This document shows, one piece after another, positions 2,891 through 39,087 of a stretch of 64,000 nucleotides of DNA. Every line of letters begins with the position of its first letter. Position 1 is the stretch's first letter. Source of the stretch: Eledone cirrhosa. Lineage: Eukaryota. Position numbers and translations under genes: made by a program. The stretch is taken from positions 378,572,001 to 378,636,000 of the forward strand of contig OZ024740.1 in the NCBI GenBank assembly GCA_964016885.1. The letters are read 5' to 3'. The notes below the pieces were generated by a model. It did not search any database. It was not told the origin of the DNA and worked only from the letters and a program-made list of their open reading frames with translations.

Positions 2891-2940
<50 letters not shown>

Positions 2941-3013
2941 CAATATTTGTTTCGACACACGATTTCATATCAAAAACCTCGCAAAACTAATTCATCGCCG
3001 TTATGGCATTAGC

Positions 3014-6000
3014 TTGTGCCAAGCTGAAAGGTTATTGAAAGACACTGTTTTTTGTTATATAAAAACTACAATAACAACAGAACAAATCCGCTTCTTAAAA
3101 CACTGTGTTTCCTCCAAAATATACACAACAAACATATCAAAACAAGTAAATAATTTATTATTGAACAAAACACAAGCTGAACGACTAAAACACACAATAA
3201 CAGTTAATATGAAAAGAACAACATACACAAAAGTCAACGAACTTTACAGACAGAAACGCATTAACGGTAAGGAAGTCCAAAATCTCACCACACCAAACGA
3301 AAGGGATGACTTCATGAGCGTCATCCGACGTGAAACGAAATACGCCCGAAACGAATGCAATAGGCATTTCAATAAGAAATTAGAATGGATGAATAAGAAA
3401 AAGCTACAAGAAAGGAAAATAGAATATTCTCAAAAATACCCAGATAACATCAACAATATCCGTATGACTGATGTAAAACTACCGGAAGAATTTACCAATG
3501 ACCACACAGTAAATATTTATGGGAACACTTTAATCAGTGAACAAGAAAAACAAATCCTGCAGCTACCACCAAAATTTGCCATCTACAAAAAGATTAACCC
3601 TATTGAGTACAAAACGGAGCTGGAAAAGTGTTTCACAAAAATACGTTGGAATGCAAAAGTAAACAACAACAACAATAATAACGGTAGTAGTAATATAAAC
3701 AATAACTCTGAGTATAGAAATAACAGCTATAATAGTAATAGCCATAACAATAACAATAGCAGGAGAGTGAGAAATAGTAATAATGGTGATAATATTAACG
3801 ATAGACAGAACAACAACAACAACCACAATAATAATAATAATAGAAACATTAACTACAGATACAGCAGCAGCGACCACAGTAGTAATAACGGTAACAATAC
3901 GAACAACAACAACAACAACAACAACCACAGTGGTAATAATGGAAATAATACATGTAACAACATTAATGATAGACACAACAAAAACAAGAAACATAATAAA
4001 AGTAACAACCACAATGGTAGAAATAACAGTAACAACAACAATAACGGTGAAGTAAACAACAATCACAGCAACAATACATCTAGCAATCATAACAACAATA
4101 CATCTAACAATCACAGCAACAATACATCTAGCAATCATAACAACAATACATCTAGCAATCACAGCAACAATACACCTAGCAATCATAACAACAATACATC
4201 TAACAATCACAGCAACAATACACCTAGCAATCATAACAACAATACATCTAACAATCACAGCAACAATACATCTAGCAATCATAACAACAATACATCTAAC
4301 AATCACAGCAACAATACACCTAGCAATCATAACAACAATACATCTAACAATCACAGCAACAATACACCTAGCAATCATAACAACAATACATCTAACAATC
4401 ACAGCAACAATACATCTAGCAATCATAACAATAATAATAATGCTAATAATAGGAACAACAACAACCACCATAATAACAATAATAGCAACACACACAACTA
4501 TGACGATAGATATAATGACAACCCCTTAGAGAAACTATTTTTCAACCCAGCTGACAAAAAATATAAGATGGGTAATATCTATCCTACGAGGTTACCCTTT
4601 AATAAAAGAGTTTGCATACCACAACAAATAGATGACGAGACAGAGGCACAGTTCACCATAGCTAGAAATAAGATTAGACAAATAGTAGACCGGTATACTA
4701 AGAGACAGAGCAGACCAGAGGCCAAACAACTTGGGAGGAAACCTGTAGAAGGCTTGGTTAGCCTCAAGCAGCGCACAAGGGATGGTGAGGTAGTATGTCT
4801 ACCCACGGATAAGTCTGGTAGGATGTCAATAGATAGCATGCCGAACTACATCAAGGCTATGCAACCCCACATCACCAACACGAGCGAAATTGCACAGCAA
4901 ACACATGATGGGAGAGAGAAAATCCTCAACGCTCACATGATGATGTGGACCGACATCCTAAAGCCAAGCAGACGCACTGCCAACAACTTCCAGGCGTCTA
5001 ACAATGGCATACCACCCTTGTATGGGTTCCGCAAAGACCACAAGACAGTCGATGACCCGACAACAGGACCACCAACAAGACCCGTATGCGGAGCAAATAT
5101 AGCTAGCAACTACAGGATCTCCTACTTCCTCTCAATGGTTATACGCCCCATAATCAAGATGTCCCCAGATGTATGTGACAGTACAGAGGACCTCCTCAGC
5201 AGAATCAGTGAGTGCAACAAAAACAGGAACCTATCCAACTGCATAATAGGCAGCGTGGATGTGGTATCACTGTACCCATCCATTAACATTGATTTTGCTG
5301 TGGAAAAATGTGTGGAGATGATCATTGAGAGTGAGGTGGAGTTCTGCGACGTCGACACAGACGAACTGGGCCTCCTACTTAGACTTACCTACGACACTGA
5401 CTACCTAGACAGCCATGACCTTAGACGTTTCTGCCCTAGTAGACCCATAAGAGGTAGACCCCCCACCATAACCTCAATGGCTAAAAAGACTCCCATGGGA
5501 AGGTGGATTGGGTGGACCAAAGCTATACGGACCCCCCAAAACAATGATCAGGTAAGAAAAATAGTCGCACATGCAATAGGGGCTAGTATCAAAACTACCC
5601 TAAAGGGCCACATATTCAAGTTCAACGAGAAGATCTACACCCAAAATGAGTGAGCAGCCATTGGCGTCAGCATAGCTGGTGATGTTGCCAACCTTTTTAT
5701 GGTATGGTGGGAAAGGAGACTTAAAGATCTCCTTAATGAGAGCTCCATAGACCTCATCATGTGCTCTCGTTACGTAGACGATATCAATATAGTTATAAGA
5801 ACATCCTCACATAAGAGCACTAATAAGTTTGATTTAGAACGTAGCACAATGGAAAGCATCCAGCAGATAGCTAATTCCATACACCAAAGTATAACTGTAA
5901 CTATCGACTACCCTTCCAAACACACTGTATTAGACACGGAACTCTGGATTAACACTATAGACGAGAGAACCCAGATTCTCCACTCACACTATGCTAAACC

Positions 6001-6929
6001 CATGGCCTCCAAATACCTGATACTAAAAAACTCAGCAATGTCCAGTAGTGCTAAGTTTAATATTCTGATCGCAGATTTGGTACGAGTGATGAAGAATGTG
6101 TCCCGCATGTGCGACCCAACAGAAATGGAAAGACACATCCAACACTTCATCAACCGCATGCAGTTCTCTGGCTACAACCAAAGAGACAGAGTCAGAGTAT
6201 ACGAAGGAGCCATGGAGAAGTATAAGACCCTCATAGAACTGGACATAAAAGGAATTTGCCCATTATACAGGAGCAAATCATGGAATAGCTTAGATAGGGC
6301 TAGACATAAGATAGGGAAAGCCACCTCATGGTACGACAACCAGAGATACCAGAGTGTCATGTTTGTGGACGCTACCCCTGGAGGGAAATTAGCTAACCAG
6401 TGTAGAAAGGCCCTGAGAAAGACCCACTTAAAGATTAAGGTGGTAGAAAAGCCAGGAACCATCATAAAATCCCTGATCAGCAAAACCTACCCTTTTAAGA
6501 AAACCCACTGTACTAATAGGAAATGTATCATATGTAAGGTAAACCCCCGGATAAACTGTAAAACTAGAAACGTGGTCTATAGCATAAGATGTACAGAGGG
6601 TACTTGCAGAAACATGATAACAACATACATAGGCGAGACAGCTCGTAGCATAGCTGAAAGGATAGACCAACACTGGGGGGGGGGGGGGGGGACGACGACT
6701 AAAAGGACGAAAAAACGGGTCAGTACTATACGAACATGCCAGACAACAACACGGCGGTAACATAGACAACATAGAAATTAGAATAATATCTAAACATAGA
6801 AATGACCCAGCAGATAGGCAAATCAGAGAGGCCAGTGAAATAGAACTTAGAAGGCCAAGGCTAAACAGAAAGAATGAATGGAATAACAACAACACCCAAA
6901 CAAACAACACTGACCTAAGAGAAGTATAA
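3014..6929 (+). pseudogene. PLE RT plus C-terminal GIY-YIG endonuclease, disrupted
   Basis: Motifs TDKSGR, SVDVVSLYPSI, RYVDDI, VVYSIRC..YIGETARS..ER and a final LNRKNEW. The 3014 and 5699 ORFs share one frame separated by one TGA (5651-5653) at the QxxG glycine. There is a frameshift in the G run near 6675-6691. Confidence 0.92.
4061..4430 (+). repeat. In-frame 24/48-bp coding minisatellite within an Asn-rich insert (about 3661-4520)
   Basis: Largely alternating units AATCACAGCAACAATACAYCTAGC and AATCATAACAACAATACATCTAAC encode (NHSNNT[S/P]S NHNNNTSN)n. Confidence 0.95.
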
Positions 6930-10429: not shown

Positions 10430-10966
10430 TATTTGTTGTGAAAGAGTCATTTCTCAATCTTGGCGCAAAACCAATTTTCTATTCACATGACCTCTACCGA
10501 CCAATCAAAATTGTTTTGACCACAAGAATTGTTGCTGGAGCCACTTTTTTAACATAAAAACAGTCTTGGCGCAAAATCAATTTTTTACACTCACATGACC
10601 TCTACCGACCAATCAAAGTTGTTTTGACCACAAGAAATTTTGCAACACCAAAGTAACGCTGGAGCCACTTTTTTAACATAAAAACAGGTAGAATTCCCAA
10701 AACTAATCAGATCAGAGCAAACAGCACGGACACTCTATCTCAAAATTATTTTTGAAAAGCATTTAGAAATGCGCAACCGGTAAAAACTTAAAACCACAAC
10801 TGAATACTAACCCATACAATCACTAATACTCTTTTATTCCTAATTAAACCATTTTTCAACTGTGAACAATTTGTCAGCATTTTCTATTCCGTTTACCAAT
10901 ATATAATAACTTGTGTGTTACACCTCTATTCTTTTAACTATCATATCCTCACACGAGATACAGAAA

Positions 10967-12277
10967 ATGCCAACAAAAACGGATACAACCCTCATCAACT
11001 CAAATGAAGAGATCCTACAGGAACTCAAGAAAATCAACACCAACCTATCTTTGCTGGTCGACAAACTTGACTCCACAAATAAGGAAACCGCCACCGGATA
11101 CAAACCCTCCGAAATCGGCGACAAACTCCAAAACCTTTGCGATACTATCCTAACTATGTTCACTACTACCAACCCAGGAAAAACCAACGAAGAACCATGT
11201 GAGATTGATTCACACAAAATGAAAATTCGAACAATTCCAAAATGGAACAAATCCCTCAGAGACAGAAAGTTCTCATTCTGGAAGATGATACAAAATCACA
11301 ACAAAGCAGAGATATATGAAAAATGGCTTAACTCAACCCCTCTAACTCTCCCCCGTAAACTACAAATTAAGTCCATTCCAAATGAACCCGAACCTCAAAG
11401 ACACCTTAGGGAAAGAATGGAATTGGAAAAAATGAAGACAGAAATTGAACTTCTTAAACTGAGGGCCCACACAAATGAGGAAAAAATCAAAACCATCGAT
11501 GAAGAGATCCTTCTGGAAATCAACAACAAAACTGAAGGCCCCAAGGTAGAGAAGATCTCCAAATTATGGAAAGGGGACTGCAACAGAGAAGAACTGAAAT
11601 CCCTTCAACGCTGGGAAAAACGTGCCGCTTGGTTCCTACACTATGAATCGACTTTTCAAACGGATTACACCTCCAATAACCCGTTCATAAAAATAGGAAA
11701 ACCCATAACTGAACCGCACAACAACTTCTCAAACCCCCAAGCCTCTAACAAACGAAGAAGGAAGCACCACACCGAAGATGAACTTCCCAACCTCGCTACC
11801 ATAAAAAGGAACAAAAACCCAAGAAATCATCTCCCCCAGAATGACATTTACAACTTTCCCCCTTCAAGGAGACACCATACCAAATCACTCAACTACTACG
11901 CGGATGCCTCATCGTCAAACATAGGGAAAAGATACCACCGCCATGATAGATGTAACAACTTCCCCGCTCCAAGGGGACAGCAAGGTAATTACCATTTTCT
12001 CAACTCTCGCTTCCACAATACACAACAAACCCACACCACACGATACAACCAACAACGTAGGCCACTTATAACACCACAATACAACATGGCACATAGAAAC
12101 ACACACCCATACTCGCAGTACAGGAACACCCCATTCAATCTACAACCACCAACCTGAACCACATTTTACAACAACAAGGAATATAACAAACACAGGAGAC
12201 CACTTAACATCAGCAGACAACCCCTCTACCCCAATCATTTTTTAGACACAGCACACAGATACAGGCAAACAAAATAA
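10967..12277 (+). pseudogene. Upstream ORF1 of PLE B (coiled-coil-like N-terminus, basic/His-rich tail) with one internal TGA
   Basis: ATG at 10967; heptad-like LEKMKTEIELLKLRAHTNEEKIKTIDEEIL. The frame stays open past TGA 12155-12157 to NHFLDTAHRYRQTK-TAA at 12277. Confidence 0.7.
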
Positions 12278-14565
12278 CACAAGACAGGGAGGAGAAACCG
12301 ATAGTAATAAAAATTATCAATCTTACTAGTGCAGAACCAACATCCAACCTTATCAACTTACTCTCCAAAGGTCTTAAATTCACACCGACCCCACTACGTC
12401 CTAACTACTATGAAATGAAGGAAGACATCACAGACTTCTGTAGAAAGTTACGACTTAATGAACAACTATTCGACCAGTACAATGAGGATGAATCATTAGC
12501 CAGAAATAGAAGCAATTACACCCCTTCAAAAGGTAGAAATAAAATCCTGGACGAATTCTGTGAACACATCACAAACTTCCCTTACCAACACTTGCACGGA
12601 CAAAAACACAAGCCAAACCTCAACAAGAAAGAATGGGAAGAATTAAATAGATTAAAAAACGACAGAACCATTACAATTAAAGAGGCTGATAAAGGGAGTA
12701 CAGTAGTCCTAATGGAGACAGAATTCTATATCAACTTAGCGCTCTCCACTTTGGAAAACGAAACATACTACGAAAAGGCTGAACACTACAATCAACAGAA
12801 AATTATGAGAAACCTAAAAACTCTAATCAACCAATACAAAGAAGGACTCACTAACAAGGAATTCAGCTTCATCACAGACATCACAAGTAAATCCAGCCTT
12901 TTCTACGGTATCCCTAAAGTACATAAAAGCGAATCAATAAGTAAGGCATGCAAGGAAGCCACAGACATAGTCATCAATGTCCCCTCACCCAATGATCTCA
13001 AATTAAGACCTATAATAGCAGGCCCCGCTTGCGAAACGCACCGTCTTAGCAACTTCATTGATACCCTTCTCAAACCCTTCCTCAAGCACATCAAAAGCTA
13101 TATAAGGGACGACCTAGATATGCTCAATCACCTCCCTAATATGCCACTTCCTGAACAAACCCTACTAGTGACGTTCGATGTAGTCAACCTATACTCCAAC
13201 ATCTCCCACAACCTAGGAATAGAAGCTATCCAATTCTGGCTGGATAATTTCCACAATGAACTCCCACAACGCATCAAAAAAAAAATTCGTGATAGAGGGA
13301 CTCAAATTTATCTTGGAGAACAATTACTTCGTTTTCAATAACAAACCCTACAGGCAGAAATCTGAGACCGCTATGGGAACGAAAACAGCCCCCACTTATG
13401 CCAACCTAGTCATGGGATACCTGGAAATCACCCTCTACATTAAAGTCCTAAACAAATTTGGAAACACCCTCCACTTACACATTGAAAGGAACTGGAAGCG
13501 ATATCTAGATGACTGCTTCATCCTTTGGCACGAAAACACCGAAAAACTTAAAGAATTTCACACCCTTATAAATGGGCTCAACACAAATATTAACTTCACG
13601 ATGGAATACAGCCATCAACAACTCCCCTTCCTCGACATCCTCATTAAGATCCATAACAAAAAAATAGAAACAGACATATACTACAAGCCCACAGACTCCA
13701 AGCAATATCTCCCCTTCAACTCTTGCCACCCTAGACACGTTAAAATTAATATTCCCTACAACCTAGCCAAGAGAATCTGTACTATAGTCTCCAATAAAAA
13801 CATCTGCTACTTACGGCTACAAGAACTAAAGGACACCCTCATAGGCAGGGACTACCCTGCATCACTAATTGACAATGGAATCCAACGTGCCCTAAAACTC
13901 AGTACCCAGGACCTTAGACACCCTAAAGTAAATCAACCAAAACTAAAAGCTCTTCCATACATCTCCACACACAACCCCCTCAACAATGAGGCCTTTGACA
14001 CCATCCTCCAGAACATCCCTGTATTGAAAAAGGACCATAGAATGAACCGAATTCTACGAACACACGATATCATAAAGAGCAAAAGACAATCCAAGTCAAT
14101 GAAAAACATCTTAACACATGCCAAAGTACTGTCAACCACAACAACAAATCCCACAGTAAAAAAAAATGCGATAGACCCAACTGTGGCATTTGCATCAACC
14201 TAATAGAGGGTTCGGAATTCTATTTCAAAGATGGACAACGTTTTATAGTAAAACACAATTTCACATGTGCATCGGAAAATCTAATATATGTATTAACTTG
14301 TTCAGGTTGTCGAGAACAATACATAGGCCACACCAAAAACAGCCTCCGCCAACGCATGACTGTCCATAGATCCCAAATTAAAATACGGGAATACAGGAAA
14401 ATACCACTGAGTGAACACATTGATACCTGTGCCGCCCAAAATCATCCCAACTTCAGAATCTTTCCCCTCTACAAATTTAAAGATAATGCCACCCACACCC
14501 AGCGCATCAGCAAGGAATCTTACTTCATTAACAAATACGGACCCCATCTAAACACTTCTCCCTAA
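12238..14565 (+). pseudogene. Neptune-like RT, Cys linker and GIY-YIG ORF with frameshifts
   Basis: LLSKGLKFTPTP, ADKGS, GIPKVHK, LRPII, FDVVNLYSNI, RYLDD, CDRPNCGIC, NLIYVLTCSGC..YIGHT..LRQR..H. Frameshifts occur in A runs near 13276-13285 and 14158-14166. Confidence 0.92.
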
Positions 14566-25471: not shown

Positions 25472-32037
<6,566 letters not shown>

Positions 32038-32038
<1 letters not shown>

Positions 32039-34010
32039 ACTTTGAATAACTTTGAAATGTTTTGGCCAGTATTGGCCCAGGCCATGTCTAACTTAATAGC
32101 ACCACCTGGCGAAGTCTTTCAATTCAGGATTTGGGCACCATGGCCCATTCGAGAAGAGAATTACTGTTTGCGGAGACATATCCGGGTGTGGGTGGTTTGT
32201 CCGGGATTACTTGGAGGAATTTGTCCAAAGACTTCTTGAATTTTGAGTGGTCAGTTTCTGTTTTGACGTGTCCTGGTGTGATGTTGAAGAGAGCAGGGCC
32301 GATTGAGGTGAAATAATTGTGCCGTATTGTTGTTATGAGTTGAGATTTAGATTTTTGAATGGGACGGATAGCACGGGGCCCAAGCCTTGGGTGTATCTTG
32401 AAGGCGATGCCAACATCATTTGGGCAGTGATGATGGAACATTTTCCACATCATGCAGATAATATAACGCTCACGGCGACGTTGGAGTGAGTAAAGTTTCA
32501 GGTTTTCCAATCGACCCCAGTAGTCAAGGTCTGACATGCCATCTATCTTTTTCGTGATTGCCCTTTGAGGAGCTTCAAGTTTCATGATACTTTGTTTCGT
32601 GTGGGGAGACCACAGTGGACAACAGTATTCAAGGTGTGGTCGGGCGAAAGTAGAGAAGAGAAGGATAATGGTGCGGGAATCTCTCGACTGGAAGGTTCTG
32701 AGGATCCAGGAACACATTCTGCGGGCCATGTCAACTTTGCTGCTTATGTGCGTGGTCCAGCTTATGTTGCTGTCCACGGTTACTCCCAAGTCTCTGATGT
32801 TGTTAGATGCCACGAGAGTTTCCCCGGAGGGAAGGGAGTACGGGAGTTTCAGAGCATCCTCTTTTCCAAAGTGGATCAGTTCGAATTTGTCCTCGTTCAG
32901 TAACATGTTGTTCTTTTCTGCCCATTGGGTAACAGCCAGTAGGTCTGACTGAAGGCTTATCCGGTCATCCACGCCATTGATGACCTTTTGGAGCTTGGAA
33001 TCATCAGCGAAAATTTTAATGTTGCTGTGTTTGATGATGTCAGTGATGTCATTAATATAGATGATGAAGAGAAGTGGGCCCAACACAGTGCCTTGTGGGA
33101 CTCCACTACTGACTTTGGCTGGGCTTGATTTGACTCCCTCAACTACAAGATGTTGGGTTCTGTTTGACAGGAAGCTCTTGATCCACTGCAGCAGCTTTCC
33201 AGTGACACCAATATTGGACAGCTTTCTCAGTAGAATGTTATGATCAACCCTGTCAAAGGCCTTGCTGAAATCAAGGTAGATAACATCAGTGTTGGAACCC
33301 TCTCCCAAGGCTCTCAAAATGTCATCAAAGTGATGCAGTAGTTGCGTCAGGCAATCCCTTCCATTACGGAATCCATGCTGGTTGGAGTTCAGCATATTGT
33401 TACTCTCAAGGAAGTGGGTCATTCGCGATCTCACCACTCGCTCAAATACCTTAATGATATGAGAGGTGAGTGAGATTGGACGGTAATTCACGGCAAGGGA
33501 TTTGTTTCCCTTTTTGAAAACTGGGACAACAGACTGGGATAGAAGGTTTTCTGGCACATATCCAGCATCCAGTGAGTTCCGCCACAGATTGGCAAGAGGA
33601 GAAGCAAGTTGGTGTTGACACGCCTTCAAGACACAAGCAGGGAACCTATCGGGACCTACTGCTGAATTATGCTTGATTTCCTTTATTGCCGCCAAGACAT
33701 CAGGGGCGCCAAACGTTATGTCCGATAAGGTGTAATGGGGAGTAACATCGCCGATACAGCCCAGATCGGCCATATCAGGATTGCTGAAAACAGAGCAGTA
33801 TTGTTTCTGCAGTATCTCACCCATGGTTTTAGCATTGTCTTGAAGAGTGCCATTTTCATCAATTAGAGGGCCAACAGTAGAGCCAGTGATTTTGTGTTTT
33901 TTTGCAAATGAAAAGAACACTTTGGGATTGAGTTTGATCTTCTCAATGGCCCAGGCCTCTTCAGCTCTTCTCTGATTGTTGATGAGGGACATTATGTTGT
34001 TTTGGAGGTT
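32038..34010 (-). mobile_element. 5'-truncated CR1/Jockey-group LINE (family 2) with an uninterrupted RT frame to the stop at 32124
   Basis: [47 protein letters not shown]. The 3' end is (TTCAAAGTTA)x2 running into (TA)n. Confidence 0.93.
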
Positions 34011-34023
34011 ATATATATATATG

Positions 34024-34104
<81 letters not shown>

Positions 34105-34145
34105 GTATATATATATATGTATATATATATGTATATATATATATG

Positions 34146-34176
<31 letters not shown>

Positions 34177-34273
34177 GTGTATATATATATATATATATAT
34201 GTGTATACTCTTTTACCTGTTTCAGCCATCCGGCTGAGGCCATGCTGGGGCACCGCCCTTGTTGCTACACATT

Positions 34274-37200
34274 TTATCTCCAGCCTGTATAGGTTGGCCA
34301 CTGGTGTAGGAGGGAGTTTGTTGCTGCTGTCCTTAGGTTTCCCTCGTGTCTTGCTGTGGGCTCATCCGGGATCCTGGATAACAAGGTGTCGAGATGTTTC
34401 TTAAAGACATCCACCTCCACGTCATGCAAGTCTCGCAGATGCCTCGGCAGCCTGTTGAAGAGTTGAGGGCCCTTGAATCCCAGGCTATTGCAATACCTGC
34501 TCCTTATTCTAGATGTGGAAGACGGGACCTTTGGCACCACACAGTGACGTCCTGTTCGACGGTTGGTCCAGCTCCCAATGCCAAAGTTTGGTGCTAGTCC
34601 CTCCAGGATTTTCCACATGTAGATCACTGCGTATCTCTCCCGTCTTCGCTCCAAGGAGTAGAGGTTCAGTTCCTTCAGCCTCTCCCAGTAGCTTGTCTCC
34701 CTCATCTTGGCAATCCTCTTGGTGTAGCTTCGCTGGATTGCCTCAAGCTCTGTGGTTAGTTTGACACTATGGGGTGACCACAGCTGGGAGCACTAGTCCA
34801 GGCGGCTTAGGACAAAGGTCCTCCACAGTGTCAACATGGTGTCTCGATCTCTTGTAAGGAAAGTCCTCAAGATCCAGCCAGCGAATCGTCTACATGCTGT
34901 CGCCACCTTCATGATGTGTGAAGAAAAAGATGCATCATCGCTCATGTCTATGCCCAGGTCTCGTATCGATTTTGACACGGGGATATCGGTCCCTCCTGGT
35001 TCTGTGTAGCTGTGTTCCGCTATATTTGTGTTTGTGTTTGCAGGTTTGTATTGTAGGGCTTGGAATTTGCCAGCATTAAACTGCATGTTGTTTTCTTCCG
35101 CCCATCTGTATATGGCATCCAGATCCTGCTGTAAGAGGGCAGCGTCAGCCGGGTTTTTGATTGCCTGTGCTACCTTAGTGTCATCAGCATAGCTAGTGAG
35201 GGATGTTGTTGCATGCACCACAGAGGGCATGTCCGAGAGAGCCACCAAAAACAGTAGTGGTCCCAGGACTGTCCCCTGAGGCACCCCACTTGTTATCGGT
35301 GTTTCCCTCGAGAGGGCCCCATTTGCTGCGACTGCCTGGCTTCTGTCCCTTAAGAAGCCATGCAGCCACTCACCTACTTTTCCAGTTATGCCGAGTCCGT
35401 GTAGTTTGTGACATATCATTCCGTGGTCGACCTTGTCAAAGGCCTTCGCAAAGTCAAGATATATCACGTCTACATGTGAGCTGTCTAGTAGTTGTCTCAG
35501 TACCCAGTCGTAGTGATGTAGCAGCTGTGTAAGGCAGCTTCTTCCTGGGCGGAAGCCATGTTGCGTGCTAGTCAGGCGGTCATTTTCTTCGAGGAAAGTG
35601 ATTAGTTTCTTTCTGACGACTCGCTCCATGACCTTACTGATATGCGACGTCAGGGAGACTGGCCTATAGTTCTTGGCCTCCGCTCTACTACCTCCTTTAT
35701 GGATAGGGCATATTGTGCCTTCTTTCAGCTCCCTGGGTAGTACACCGCTAGCCAAGGAGCTTCTGAAGAGCATCTTCAGTGGAGTTGCTAAGGCCCGCTT
35801 ACATATTTTTAGGAGAACTGCTGGGAATCCATCAGGTCCAGCAGCCGAGTCTGTTCTAATTTCATCAATGGCGTACACCACATCCTCCTCCGTTATGTCT
35901 ATGTGGTTGATGGTTGCCATTTCTTGATGTAGTGTTGTGGCATCAAAGAACTCCTCTGGCTTCGTTATTTGCATGTGCCTCAGTGGACATGTGAAGACAC
36001 TTTTGTACTGTTCGTTCAGTATTTCACATATCTCTTGGGGATTTTCGGTTAATGAACCGTCCGTGTGGAAGAGTGGTCCAATCTTGCAGTGTACTGAGGC
36101 AGTTTCTTTTGCAAATTTAAAGAAGGCCTTAGGGTTTGTTTTAATGTTTTCTATGGCCCTGTTCTCTTTCCTTGCCCTCTCATTCTCATGTGAAAGCTTG
36201 AGTGCAATCTCGGTGTCAAGTAGTGCACGTTTCAAATAGGATTCCTTCTTGTTTTGGTTTTGTTGACTATTCAACTGGTTTGAGAGTTTAGTTCTACGTC
36301 TCATAAGGATTTTCCTATCTCTGGGAAAAAGATTTTTGTGTCTGTTTGCCTCTTTCTCCGGGACACACCTTTTGCATATGGTGTGTATCGTTGTCATGAA
36401 GTGTTGAAATTGTGTGTTAGTGTCTTGTGTGGCGATGTTTGCACTCCATGTTTGCTTCCGGATTTCACTCTTAATCTTCTTCCAGTCAGCCCCGTAGAAG
36501 TTAAGGCTGGATAGCGTCCCGGAGCTTCTTGGTGGTTTTGTCTCTGTTGGTTCTCTTGGACCACATATCATTAGCTCTACCAAGTTATGATCCGAGAGAA
36601 TTGTTGGTGTCACCTTTACATTGTGGATGAGCACTTCGTTGTTTGTAAAAGAGGTCCAGGACATTTTCGCCTCTTGTTGGGAGGAGTATTGCTTGCTCCA
36701 TGAACAGCCTGTGTGTGAGGGCCAGCAGGGATTCCGTCTCTCTCTGTTCTATTGACGTCATTCCAGGGAGGAGGTGGCCCTCAGGCCATTTGACCTTTGG
36801 TAGGTTGAAGTCTCCCAGCAGTAGGATGTTGAGACCCTGGTCCAGTTTGTCAAGGACCTCTTCTATCCTACTTAGGCTATCCTCAAATTTACCCTCATGA
36901 CTGGGGGCATCGGGCGGCCGATATGTGACACATATTACCGTCTGTAGTTGCTTCATATGTATTATCAGTGTGTCACAGACTGAGTTTGAATGTGTCAACA
37001 GTACAATTGGTGTGACATCTTCACGGATATACAGAGCAACCCCACCATGAGTTCTCTCCTTCCTGTCCGAACGAAATACAGTATATTTCGGTATATGTAT
37101 TTCTGCATCTGCTATACTGCTTGTCAGGTGCGTTTCGGTTAGTGCCATGCATAGTGCTTGATTGCTTATGGCTAAGTCTCCCAGGTAGGAAATTTTACTC

Positions 37201-37424
37201 ATGTTGCTGAGTTTCACCAGGCCCCTGACATTCAGCAGCAGCACTGGTGTGACTTTTGGGGTGCCAGTAATGGCTGTCGGTATGACACCTGGTCTGGTGT
37301 CAGCGGCGGCCACTCTGGGTCCCTTAACTGCGGTGGTCTCGAGTGCTGGTGTGGATGACCCTGGCTCTGGAGACGATGCAGCCAGGTCAGCTGTCCCACA
37401 ATCTTCTCTGCCATCACTAAAAAA
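34274..37424 (-). pseudogene. LINE ORF2: apurinic endonuclease plus RT, with one frameshift (about 36650) and one TAG (34793-34795)
   Basis: LLNVRGL, LTETHL, GGVALY, YRPP, GDFN, PTRG..LDL, SDHN; YLDFAKAFDKVDH, GVPQG, YADD; RLD*CSQLWSP; LERRRERY. Confidence 0.93.
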
Positions 37425-38200
37425 TTTTTCTGATCTGCTGCTGCCATCTGTATCTCGTCGGCATGTGCGTGCCTTCTCCTTGTTGGTGCAGCACGCGCGA
37501 CATCAGCATACTTCTGGAGCGGCTTATTTCGGCTTCGGCTTTGGCTGGGGCATGTTGCGCGAGTATGATGGGCATAGTTCGTTTGAGACCTAGGGTGGGC
37601 GAATCTGCATCCCATCCCTGTCTCTCCATGCCAGCATGTCCCGTTCTTGAAAAACTTGCACATTACTTGGTGTTTTTTGCTCCCAGTGTCTCGGTGCTTT
37701 CTGTTCTTTCTTTGAACAGTTGTCCACTGGTCCCTCTGCGCTTGGTTCTCCTTCGGAAGGTGATTTCGCTTTTCACCTTTGCCCTTAGCTTGTTGGTTGC
37801 CCGGCCTGCCCTCCCTGCCTGTAGCGGAGGGTATATCATTTTCTTTCAGGTCCGTGCTTGTGCTCTCCTCCTTTTCTTTTTCCCTTTCCTTTTCCTCTTC
37901 CTTTTCCCTCTCCTTCTCCTCATCCCTCCCTTCGATTTTCTCCTCCCTGAGGACACGGCTTAGCATCGCCATATGAGGCGCTATGAGGACATACGCCTTC
38001 TCAATTTCTTTTCTCTTTCTCTCTATCTGTACCAGGGTCCTCATAAACCCATGGCTCTTCAGGTTCTCCGCCATCTTTTTGCTTGGTGGAGACCCATCAG
38101 CCATAGTCCACCCCTTGATCAAAACCGCTAGTTCAATCTTCGACCAGTTTCGCTGACTCCTGATTTCACATTTTTCCCATTTTTCCTGCATGCAGTCCAT
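37232..38200 (-). CDS. LINE ORF1 with a Myb/SANT-like N-terminal domain and a CCCH zinc finger
   Basis: Likely ATG at 38200. NWSKIELAVLIKGW..MAENLKSHGFMRTLVQIERKRKEIEKAY; C-x7-C-x8-C-x3-H (CKFFKNGTCWHGETGMGCRFAH). Confidence 0.75.
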   Translation of the reverse strand: MDCMQEKWEKCEIRSQRNWSKIELAVLIKGWTMADGSPPSKKMAENLKSHGFMRTLVQIERKRKEIEKAYVLIAPHMAMLSRVLREEKIEGRDEEKEREKEEEKEREKEKEESTSTDLKENDIPSATGREGRPGNQQAKGKGEKRNHLPKENQAQRDQWTTVQRKNRKHRDTGSKKHQVMCKFFKNGTCWHGETGMGCRFAHPRSQTNYAHHTRATCPSQSRSRNKPLQKYADVARAAPTRRRHAHADEIQMAAADQKNFLVMAEKIVGQLTWLHRLQSQGHPHQHSRPPQLRDPEWPPLTPDQVSYRQPLLAPQKSHQCCC

Positions 38201-38410
38201 TTCGCTGTGGAGGGGAGAAAGAGGGACAGTGGGAGGTGTAGAGTAGAGGTTAGAGAGGGACAGGGTGAGGGAGGGAGATAGAGATATAACTCCAGCGAGA
38301 GAAAAAGAAAGAAAGAGAAACAGAAGAAAAGAAAAGAAAAGGGGGAGACAGAAGAGGGGAGCGAGAGAGATAGCGGGAAGAGTGGGGGGGGGGTCAGAGG
38401 GAGAGAGAGA

Positions 38411-38442
<32 letters not shown>

Positions 38443-39087
38443 CTCGTTGATCTAGAGAGAGGGAGAAAGAGAGCTCGTTGATCGAGAAAGAGAGGGAGAG
38501 AGAGAGAGGAAGGAGAGAGATAGAGACAGCGTGAGAGCGTGAGCAACTGCAGTTCATAAATATAAAAATAAATTTTTAAATCTAAATTTAAATTAATGAA
38601 TGGAAGAAACCGGAAACAGAGATATAGAAACACGATGTAAATGTCTGTTTACAAATATACGGAGTTATTGTAATATCAGCATATCATACAAGAAACAACG
38701 AAATCGGGTCAAATACAGATAAGATTATACAAAATCAAACAAGATTATATCAAATTAAATTATGTTACTCAGAAATATCAAAATTAATACAAAATTGCTT
38801 AAGCTAAACCAAAATGCTCTGTATGAAACAAAAATAGAAAGCACCTGTGTGTGTTGTCTCCCATGAATGAATCATACAGTGAAAATAAACATGTTCAAAA
38901 CGGTAATATATGTAAAATATACTTCAAAATAATTGCGTCAAAGCACAAAAACTTATCTTTTTTGTATGTTTTCCTTGTCCTCTGAAGAATTAAAACCATA
39001 CATAAATCCGATTACTGTCGATTTAAAATATTAAAATTTCAAATCCGGAGAGACGACAATTCACGTCTTATACCAACAAGTGCCAAG

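Follow-up and report, generated by a model that had tools for sequence, protein, structure and literature searches.

The LINE on the minus strand of the window (the whole stretch of 64,000 nucleotides of Eledone cirrhosa DNA that was analysed) probably produces its enzyme ORF by programmed -1 frameshifting, which would give an ORF1-ORF2 fusion. Judging from the sequence and its comparison with relatives, we put the probability of this reading at about two in three. At the junction, a slippery heptamer is phased on ORF1, the -1 frame is open and this copy has no ATG before the catalytic Asn of the endonuclease; moreover, phased sites recur at the same junction in relatives. The fusion had been put forward in the original prediction together with a stimulatory pseudoknot. 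The comparison with relatives favours the fusion, and the pseudoknot found no such backing.

The element extends from about 38200 to 34200 and consists of ORF1 and an ORF2 that is present in three pieces (Table 1). From stop to stop, ORF1 covers 37232..38575, and its first plausible ATG is that at 38200. The Cys and His residues of its CCCH finger are invariant in all three aligned ORF1s. The N-terminal part resembles Myb/SANT-like DNA-binding domains, a likeness that is a lead only; this part had no match in Pfam, and the whole ORF1 gave no usable match against the Atlas. An ORF1 layout combining this lead with a CCCH finger is not named in the available text of PMC4120745. A long pyrimidine-rich tract ending in CAG (38205-38530, minus strand) lies just before the ORF1 ATG and could represent either a microsatellite of the 5' UTR or a splice acceptor. 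In ORF2, a copy-specific one-base frame break is present near 36650 and, because of this break and the premature TAG, the copy is broken and cannot move by itself. Directly downstream, beyond a TA-rich microsatellite, lies another LINE (32124-34010, minus strand), which is 5'-truncated and represents a sister family within this element's RT clade. No second copy of the LINE was found within the 64-kb window.

Table 1. Features of the LINE and of its ORF1/ORF2 junction (positions in the window)
Feature	Position	Strand	Remarks
LINE ORF1	37232..38200	-	322 aa from ATG 38200; relatives P0001, P0002, P0158
ORF1 N-terminal part, Myb/SANT-like	37916..38200	-	Atlas feature matches 0.84-0.89, below the 0.9 mark
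CCCH-type zinc finger in ORF1	37589..37660	-	PF00642, E=0.018, below the curated cut-off
ORF2 5' piece, linker and APE endonuclease	36585..37502	-	PF03372/PF14529; Asn codon 37232-37230; first ATG 37202-37200
ORF2 middle piece with RT	34793..36748	-	RT domain ~35704-35051, RVT_1 E=3e-30; premature TAG 34795-34793
ORF2 C-terminal piece	34274..34792	-	followed near 34200 by TA-rich microsatellite sequence
Slippery heptamer T TTT TTA	37418..37424	-	in phase with ORF1, over Phe-Leu (residues 260-261); next base G
Overlapping heptamer A AAT TTT, likewise phased	37421..37427	-	missed in the original prediction
Dual-coding overlap past the slip site	37232..37417	-	62 codons, read as a conserved ORF1 tail and as a low-complexity linker of ORF2
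CTG in the ORF2 frame, rival start	37383..37385	-	site where P0003 and P0009 begin with Met
Stem 1 of the original prediction (S1)	37375..37415	-	37415-37408 with 37381-37375; not supported
Stem 2 (S2), strongest hairpin	37356..37389	-	37389-37380 with 37366-37356; only a 3-pair core compatible in relatives
Alternative stem 1	37370..37408	-	37408-37398 with 37379-37370; 9-nt spacer; candidate stimulator, this copy only

The ORF2 profile matches L1 ORF2p and the L1 endonuclease, and both an N-terminal APE endonuclease and an RT are present. The best protein match is XP_036369725 from Octopus sinensis, and one ORF1 relative comes from O. vulgaris. By eye, the RT stretch is very like those of the Octopus CR1 LINEs O.sinensis_104, 135 and 14 (PMC10294476, supplement 30), which share the APE and RT ORF2 with the element and are classed as Jockey/CR1 (PMC10294476, supplement 27). 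The element is probably a CR1-clade LINE, a class assigned by this likeness, and it has a separate upstream ORF1. The Proto2 clade was considered and rejected, since the Proto2-1_BF row differs at the RT motifs by eye (PMC10294476, supplement 30). In a quick RT tree, built without reference sequences, the element falls into a clade of 27 rows (support 97), separate from the majority of the contig loci. When the ORF2 5' piece was searched against the PDB as a single sequence, one chance match only was returned, plasmid sequences contained no match to the LINE, and the scan of genome contigs gave mostly distant elements.

The original prediction had placed T TTT TTA at 37424-37418 in the X XXY YYZ phase on ORF1, and had claimed that the -1 frame encodes the endonuclease and that its first ATG follows the LLNVRGL motif. 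All three statements were confirmed: the heptamer is so phased, the frame, which stays open between 37502 and 36585, encodes an APE endonuclease, and the ATG at 37202 lies ten codons past the Asn. The ORF1 and ORF2 frames overlap by 271 nt, and the stop codon of ORF1, TGA at 37234-37232, shares bases with the Leu and Asn codons in the first endonuclease strand. By itself, the heptamer is not a rare sequence, with TTTTTTA occurring 48 times in the window; in a 271-nt overlap, a phased one has a chance of about 0.02, and the open stretch of 62 codons has one of 0.02-0.05 at local stop densities. The weight of the heptamer comes from its recurrence in relatives and not from its rarity. Past the slip site both frames are conserved in relatives. 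Identity of ORF1 peaks in this part of the overlap (24/30 and 21/30), and P0002, read in the ORF1 frame, and P0005, read in the ORF2 frame, are compatible at 39 of 39 overlap positions. This conservation bears on the idea that there is really a single long ORF, put out of frame by an indel in its A5-T6 run through mutation, assembly error or transcriptional slippage. The copy does contain the other one-base break and the premature stop, and P0153 shows a fixed shift at about the slip site. However, independent copies keep both frames, ORF1 in P0001, P0002 and P0155 and ORF2 in P0003, P0005 and P0009, and distant loci share the -1 layout. The offset is thus not an indel artefact; in that form this explanation is largely refuted, and as a whole it scarcely deserves any weight.

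Protein relatives carry a signature that fits the slip site. The test set consisted of those 33 of 150 ORF2 relatives that have at least 35 aa upstream of the endonuclease, the 117 shorter ones being dropped. In 9 of the 33, Phe-Phe occurs 25-94 residues upstream of the endonuclease and is always followed by Arg, Ser or Ile, which make up 27% of the residues after Phe-Phe in ORF2 bodies. Against the 9 observed, within-segment shuffling produced 0.43 on average and never more than 4 in 5000 shuffles; the pattern had been spotted by eye before testing. None of the other 19 doubled residues is enriched in the same relatives. The nine proteins are 28-46% identical to each other; Met is absent between Phe-Phe and the endonuclease in six of them and present in three. 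Among the 16 dipeptides that an ORF1 Phe-Leu can give in the -1 frame, Phe-Phe is the most enriched (9 vs 0.93), IF (7 vs 1.8), VF (5 vs 1.4) and VP (10 vs 5.3) are enriched more weakly, and the other 12 are flat. Phe-Phe fits TTT TTT A coding; protein sequences are compatible with the heptamer but cannot fix codons. The excess points to a constraint at the nucleotide level, and the heptamer site looks selected. Furthermore, the ORF1 relatives P0001 and P0002 keep Phe-Leu at the slip-site position. Phe-Phe is absent from 24 of the 33 relatives, many of which start downstream of its position; among extensions of at least 66 aa upstream of the endonuclease, it is found in 7 of 15 and lacking in 8.

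The recurrence extends to distant DNA loci. Eighty LINE-bearing contigs (L001-L080) were collected, of which 45 have no endonuclease start; 10 of the other 35 were left out as edge, broken, single-ORF or duplicate cases, leaving 25 loci scored at the ORF1/ORF2 junction. A -1 overlap with a true ORF1 is present at 7 of these 25, mostly distant CR1-group loci, and a strict phased heptamer occurs in 4 of the 7 as compared to 1 of the 18 other junctions (Fisher p=0.012), among which L021 and the 5'-truncated L024 and L025 were counted. The strict sites are T TTT TTA in L004 and L033, T TTA AAC in L020 and A AAA AAC in L002; the relaxed site T TTT TTG of L013 raises the count to 5 of 7. Because 1.1 strict heptamers are expected among seven overlaps, 4 of 7 is modest by itself; for TTTTTTA, 0.06 are expected and two were observed. 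All three loci without an ATG before the endonuclease motif (L004, L013, L020) have a site, located 3-6 codons past the upstream stop in the ORF2 frame, and in L019 and L038, which have no slip site, an ATG stands where the overlap begins. The layout seen in the window is found again in L004 and L013, with F-L-x-M and an ORF1 stop on the first endonuclease strand; the RT of L004 matches that of the window element at only 31%, and the ORF1 tail after Phe-Leu nevertheless aligns with that of L004. The original prediction had asked for conservation of the heptamer, and a site recurs in 9 of 33 proteins and 4 of 7 DNA overlaps. L002, the only DNA junction in the element's own 27-row RT clade, combines A AAA AAC with an ATG 34 codons before the endonuclease and lacks U6A, and the slip site of P0158, which is a decayed copy from O. 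vulgaris, reads KFC.

Several other arrangements were seen in the same collection. Esterase-type ORF1s end on T TTA AAC directly before their stop in L020/L022 and L021, the latter with an apparent one-base loss just downstream, and on T TTT TTA followed by a strong stem-loop in L033 (480-530). In L027/L066, L071, L073, L003/L006/L007 and L030, ORF1 and ORF2 are in-frame with one stop between them and no ATG before the endonuclease motif. The stop contexts at these junctions are TGA CAA, TGA CAG and TGA CTA, which we take to look like readthrough signals, and otherwise TAR GAT or TGA AAC. ORF2 overlaps ORF1 by 50-92 nt in the +1 frame in L009, L010, L018, L041 and L058, where a +1 or -2 shift is possible; L009 and L058 have no Met before the endonuclease. 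In L045, L046, L055, L075 and L076, the endonuclease is preceded by a Cys-rich finger and by a DxExNPGP motif of the 2A-like type or one similar to it; 2A-like peptides in CR1/L2 ORF2 have already been reported (PMC13405545). Finally, 333 LINE-type RT stretches were found in prokaryotic genome records, where they are probably eukaryotic contigs binned into those assemblies.

Two explanations for the heptamer do without recoding. It could be a by-product of a conserved ORF1 helix (F-L-x-M) written in A/T-rich codons, with ORF2 being expressed otherwise. The ORF1 tail past Phe-Leu is indeed among the best-conserved ORF1 blocks, and TTTTTTA is common in the window. Yet the other codings of Phe-Leu in the -1 frame (FS, FL, FP, LS, LL, LP and the like) are not enriched, the esterase-type ORF1s of L020 and L033, whose tails are unrelated, also end on phased heptamers, and a mere by-product leaves this copy with no route to an intact endonuclease. 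We regard this explanation as very improbable. The alternative that TTTTTTAG is a 3' splice site, so that a spliced RNA would join an upstream start to the ORF2 frame, is improbable as well. A G follows the heptamer in the window, L004 and L033, and eight of the nine Phe-Phe proteins continue with Arg or Ser, which is compatible with an AG. A G, however, also follows U6A in HIV-1 and alphavirus shift sites. No AG is present at the site in L013 (TTTTTTGG) or in P0035 (FFI), and L020 uses T TTA AAC. Moreover, the pyrimidine run is only 6-7 nt long, with purine-rich sequence and another AG just upstream, and a splice site need not be phased on ORF1, yet all these sites are.

The start of ORF2 is where the frameshift competes with a translational alternative. 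By family profile, the Asn of LLNVRGL is aligned with N14 of L1, and a start at ATG 37202 would drop this residue because the ATG follows it by ten codons. In L1, N14A cut retrotransposition to 1%, and in Zorro3, N17A reduced it to under 5% (PMC1965478). The Met at 37202 is absent in P0003, P0004, P0005, P0009 and P0159. If the frameshifting is real, ORF2 models begun at the first ATG lose a catalytic residue of the endonuclease. The claim in the original prediction that ORF2 lacks a usable start holds for this copy and not for some relatives. P0003 from O. sinensis has two Met before the endonuclease, at the positions of CTG 37385 and GTG 37313; P0009 and P0159 have their Met start upstream of the endonuclease, in P0009 at the place of CTG 37385, bearing in mind that starts of predicted proteins may be GTG or TTG; and ATGs precede the endonuclease in L002, L019, L033 and L038. 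Since an upstream Met or ATG is present in P0003, P0009, P0159 and L002, an AUG start of ORF2 is conceivable for some copies and families. The original prediction had named copies with an ATG before the endonuclease, or without the heptamer, as evidence against itself, and such copies exist in part (P0003, L002).

A free ORF2 protein might arise if ribosomes initiate, or terminate and reinitiate, within the overlap, using an AUG or a near-cognate codon; the heptamer would then be a relic or second route. The candidate starts are CTG 37385, GTG 37313 and, 4-10 nt upstream of the ORF1 stop, the near-cognate GTG/CTG at 37244-37238. AUG-independent initiation of ORF2 has been described for L1 (PMC5009743, PMC1965478) and stop-start coupling for SART1 (PMC2699510). 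Against this, the codon at 37385 stems from the wobble base of an ORF1 Thr-Trp pair; because it is CTG here, C-initial in P0158 and Leu in P0107 and P0153, it is not a conserved AUG, and it lies 150 nt before the ORF1 stop. Separate initiation also leaves unexplained the excess of FF(R/S/I) and the opening of the -1 frame just before the heptamer in L004, L013, L020 and L033. We consider it unlikely, but to be reckoned with. A UGGGA, which we take to be the motif of a calicivirus-type TURBS, is present at about 37398-37394. It was rejected as such an element since it lies about 160 nt from the ORF1 stop, whereas the elements described in PMC2699510 are of about 70 nt.

The RNA downstream of the heptamer was compared with the pseudoknot of the original prediction. 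Both proposed stems can pair and have an H-type layout with loops of 18, 0 and 10 nt, but this pseudoknot is not supported in the form drawn. S1 is separated by 2 nt from T TTT TTA and by 5 nt from A AAT TTT, the usual spacer between heptamer and structure being 5-9 nt (PMC5009743), and S1 alone amounts to -4.7 kcal/mol. Plain folds of the slip region are ordinary, at shuffle level (z -0.07 to 0.75). The best-pseudoknot stacking score was attained in 11 of 300 shuffles, in 3 of 190 windows from the LINE body and, with a spacer of 4-10 nt, in 3 of 100 shuffles, the latter for an alternative pseudoknot at 9 nt. This score owes its height to a single 10-bp hairpin, the best pairings differ from S1, and with both stems at full length the alternative pseudoknot is strained, its loop 3 having only 3 nt. 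The conservation of the stems asked for in the original prediction was not borne out: as inferred from proteins, at least one impossible pair occurs in S1 in all three relatives covering it, in S2 in five of six, and in the alternative S1, the lower half of which is broken, in three of four. Among five related loci scored for downstream structure, only L033 was strong, and a search with Rfam over 32000-39000 gave 12 weak matches, none near the slip site. Altogether, no conserved 3' structure was found downstream of the heptamer among the relatives compared; a hairpin or loose pseudoknot may help the slip in this copy.

In the frameshifting reading, ribosomes that have translated ORF1 as far as residues 260-261 would meet U UUU UUA G or the A AAU UUU that overlaps it. 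Most of them would continue to the ORF1 stop 62 codons on and make the 322-aa ORF1 protein, and a minority would slip back by one base, reading a linker of about 60 residues and then the whole endonuclease and RT. In intact copies, the predicted fusion would have about 1,300 aa (261 residues from ORF1 and about 1,047 from ORF2), with Leu or Phe at its junction, as with the same heptamer in HIV-1. The slip would set a low ratio of ORF2 to ORF1, like gag-pol frameshifting, and because no conserved structure was found, a low shift rate that rests mainly on the heptamer is to be expected. If this is correct, the active enzyme would be a covalent ORF1-ORF2 fusion that could enter the ORF1 assembly on its own RNA, and both particle assembly and cis preference would be affected. 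A retrovirus-type slippery site would also give CR1-group elements a second, testable route to ORF2. We would suggest only tentatively, at somewhat less than even odds, that gag-pol-style recoding is widespread and overlooked in CR1-group LINEs, with -1 shifts at U UUU UUA or U UUA AAC in many lineages and stop readthrough in sister lineages.

The original prediction had drawn a parallel to an unrelated Penelope-like element (PLE) in the window. The same heptamer is indeed present in it, at 12238-12244 on the plus strand (within the region 10910-14565), where it is phased and the -1 frame is the RT frame. However, the parallel is weak: ORF1 of this PLE copy has a TGA 81 nt upstream of the heptamer, and no fold was found downstream of it. 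That ORF1 of PLEs can be separable by a frameshift with a pseudoknot is stated in PMC8557442 (legend of Fig. 1); PLEs are a different class of retroelements with a GIY-YIG endonuclease, and this bears on the neighbouring PLE and not on the LINE. A second Penelope-like element (2903-6760, plus strand) has a long Asn-rich insert and one in-frame TGA in an RT motif (5651-5653), which is most likely a nonsense change. Selenocysteine was rejected for this codon, the element having a C-terminal GIY-YIG and the codon standing at a Gly and not a Cys position; Gly is presumably what the RT motif expects there.

Programmed -1 frameshifting itself is well known from viruses and LTR elements. For CR1 elements, no description of a slippery site was found in the literature searched, which included few subscription papers and no Repbase Reports. 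The available main text of PMC10294476 makes no mention of frameshifts, and the available text of the survey of CR1/L2/Jockey ORF1 (PMC4120745) gave no matches for frameshift, overlap or CCCH; the ORF1 in the window differs by its CCCH finger and Myb/SANT-like lead. A prior mention of a CR1 frameshift is possible, since early CR1 papers reportedly discussed close or overlapping ORFs. A close match to the proposed mechanism is HIV-1-type gag-pol, which shares the heptamer U UUU UUA, the -1 direction and a structural ORF overlapping an enzyme ORF. For the HIV-1 heptamer, a mix of Leu and Phe is expected at the junction (PMC5009743); the window element differs from HIV-1 in being a non-LTR element with no protease domain seen and no conserved stem-loop at 5-9 nt.

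Among LINEs, the Dictyostelium elements TRE5-A and TRE3-A belong to an L1-like clade, unlike CR1. A review states that they require a -1 frameshift for ORF2 (PMC5911963), in a different host from that of the window LINE. A frameshift in the gag of HeT-A and a suggested +1 frameshift or readthrough in Paramecium LINEs have also been described in the literature covered, which included PMC5009743, PMC1965478, PMC5405496, PMC11835228 and PMC7175516. In general, translation of LINE ORF2 has been described as unresolved, with reinitiation favoured (PMC5009743, PMC1965478). L1 and SART1 face the same need for little ORF2 from a bicistronic LINE RNA. In L1, the ORFs are split by a short spacer, and in SART1 they meet at a UAAUG stop-start pentamer (PMC2699510), both arrangements giving a free ORF2 protein. 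In the window LINE, by contrast, the two frames share 271 nt and the catalytic Asn is not preceded by an AUG.
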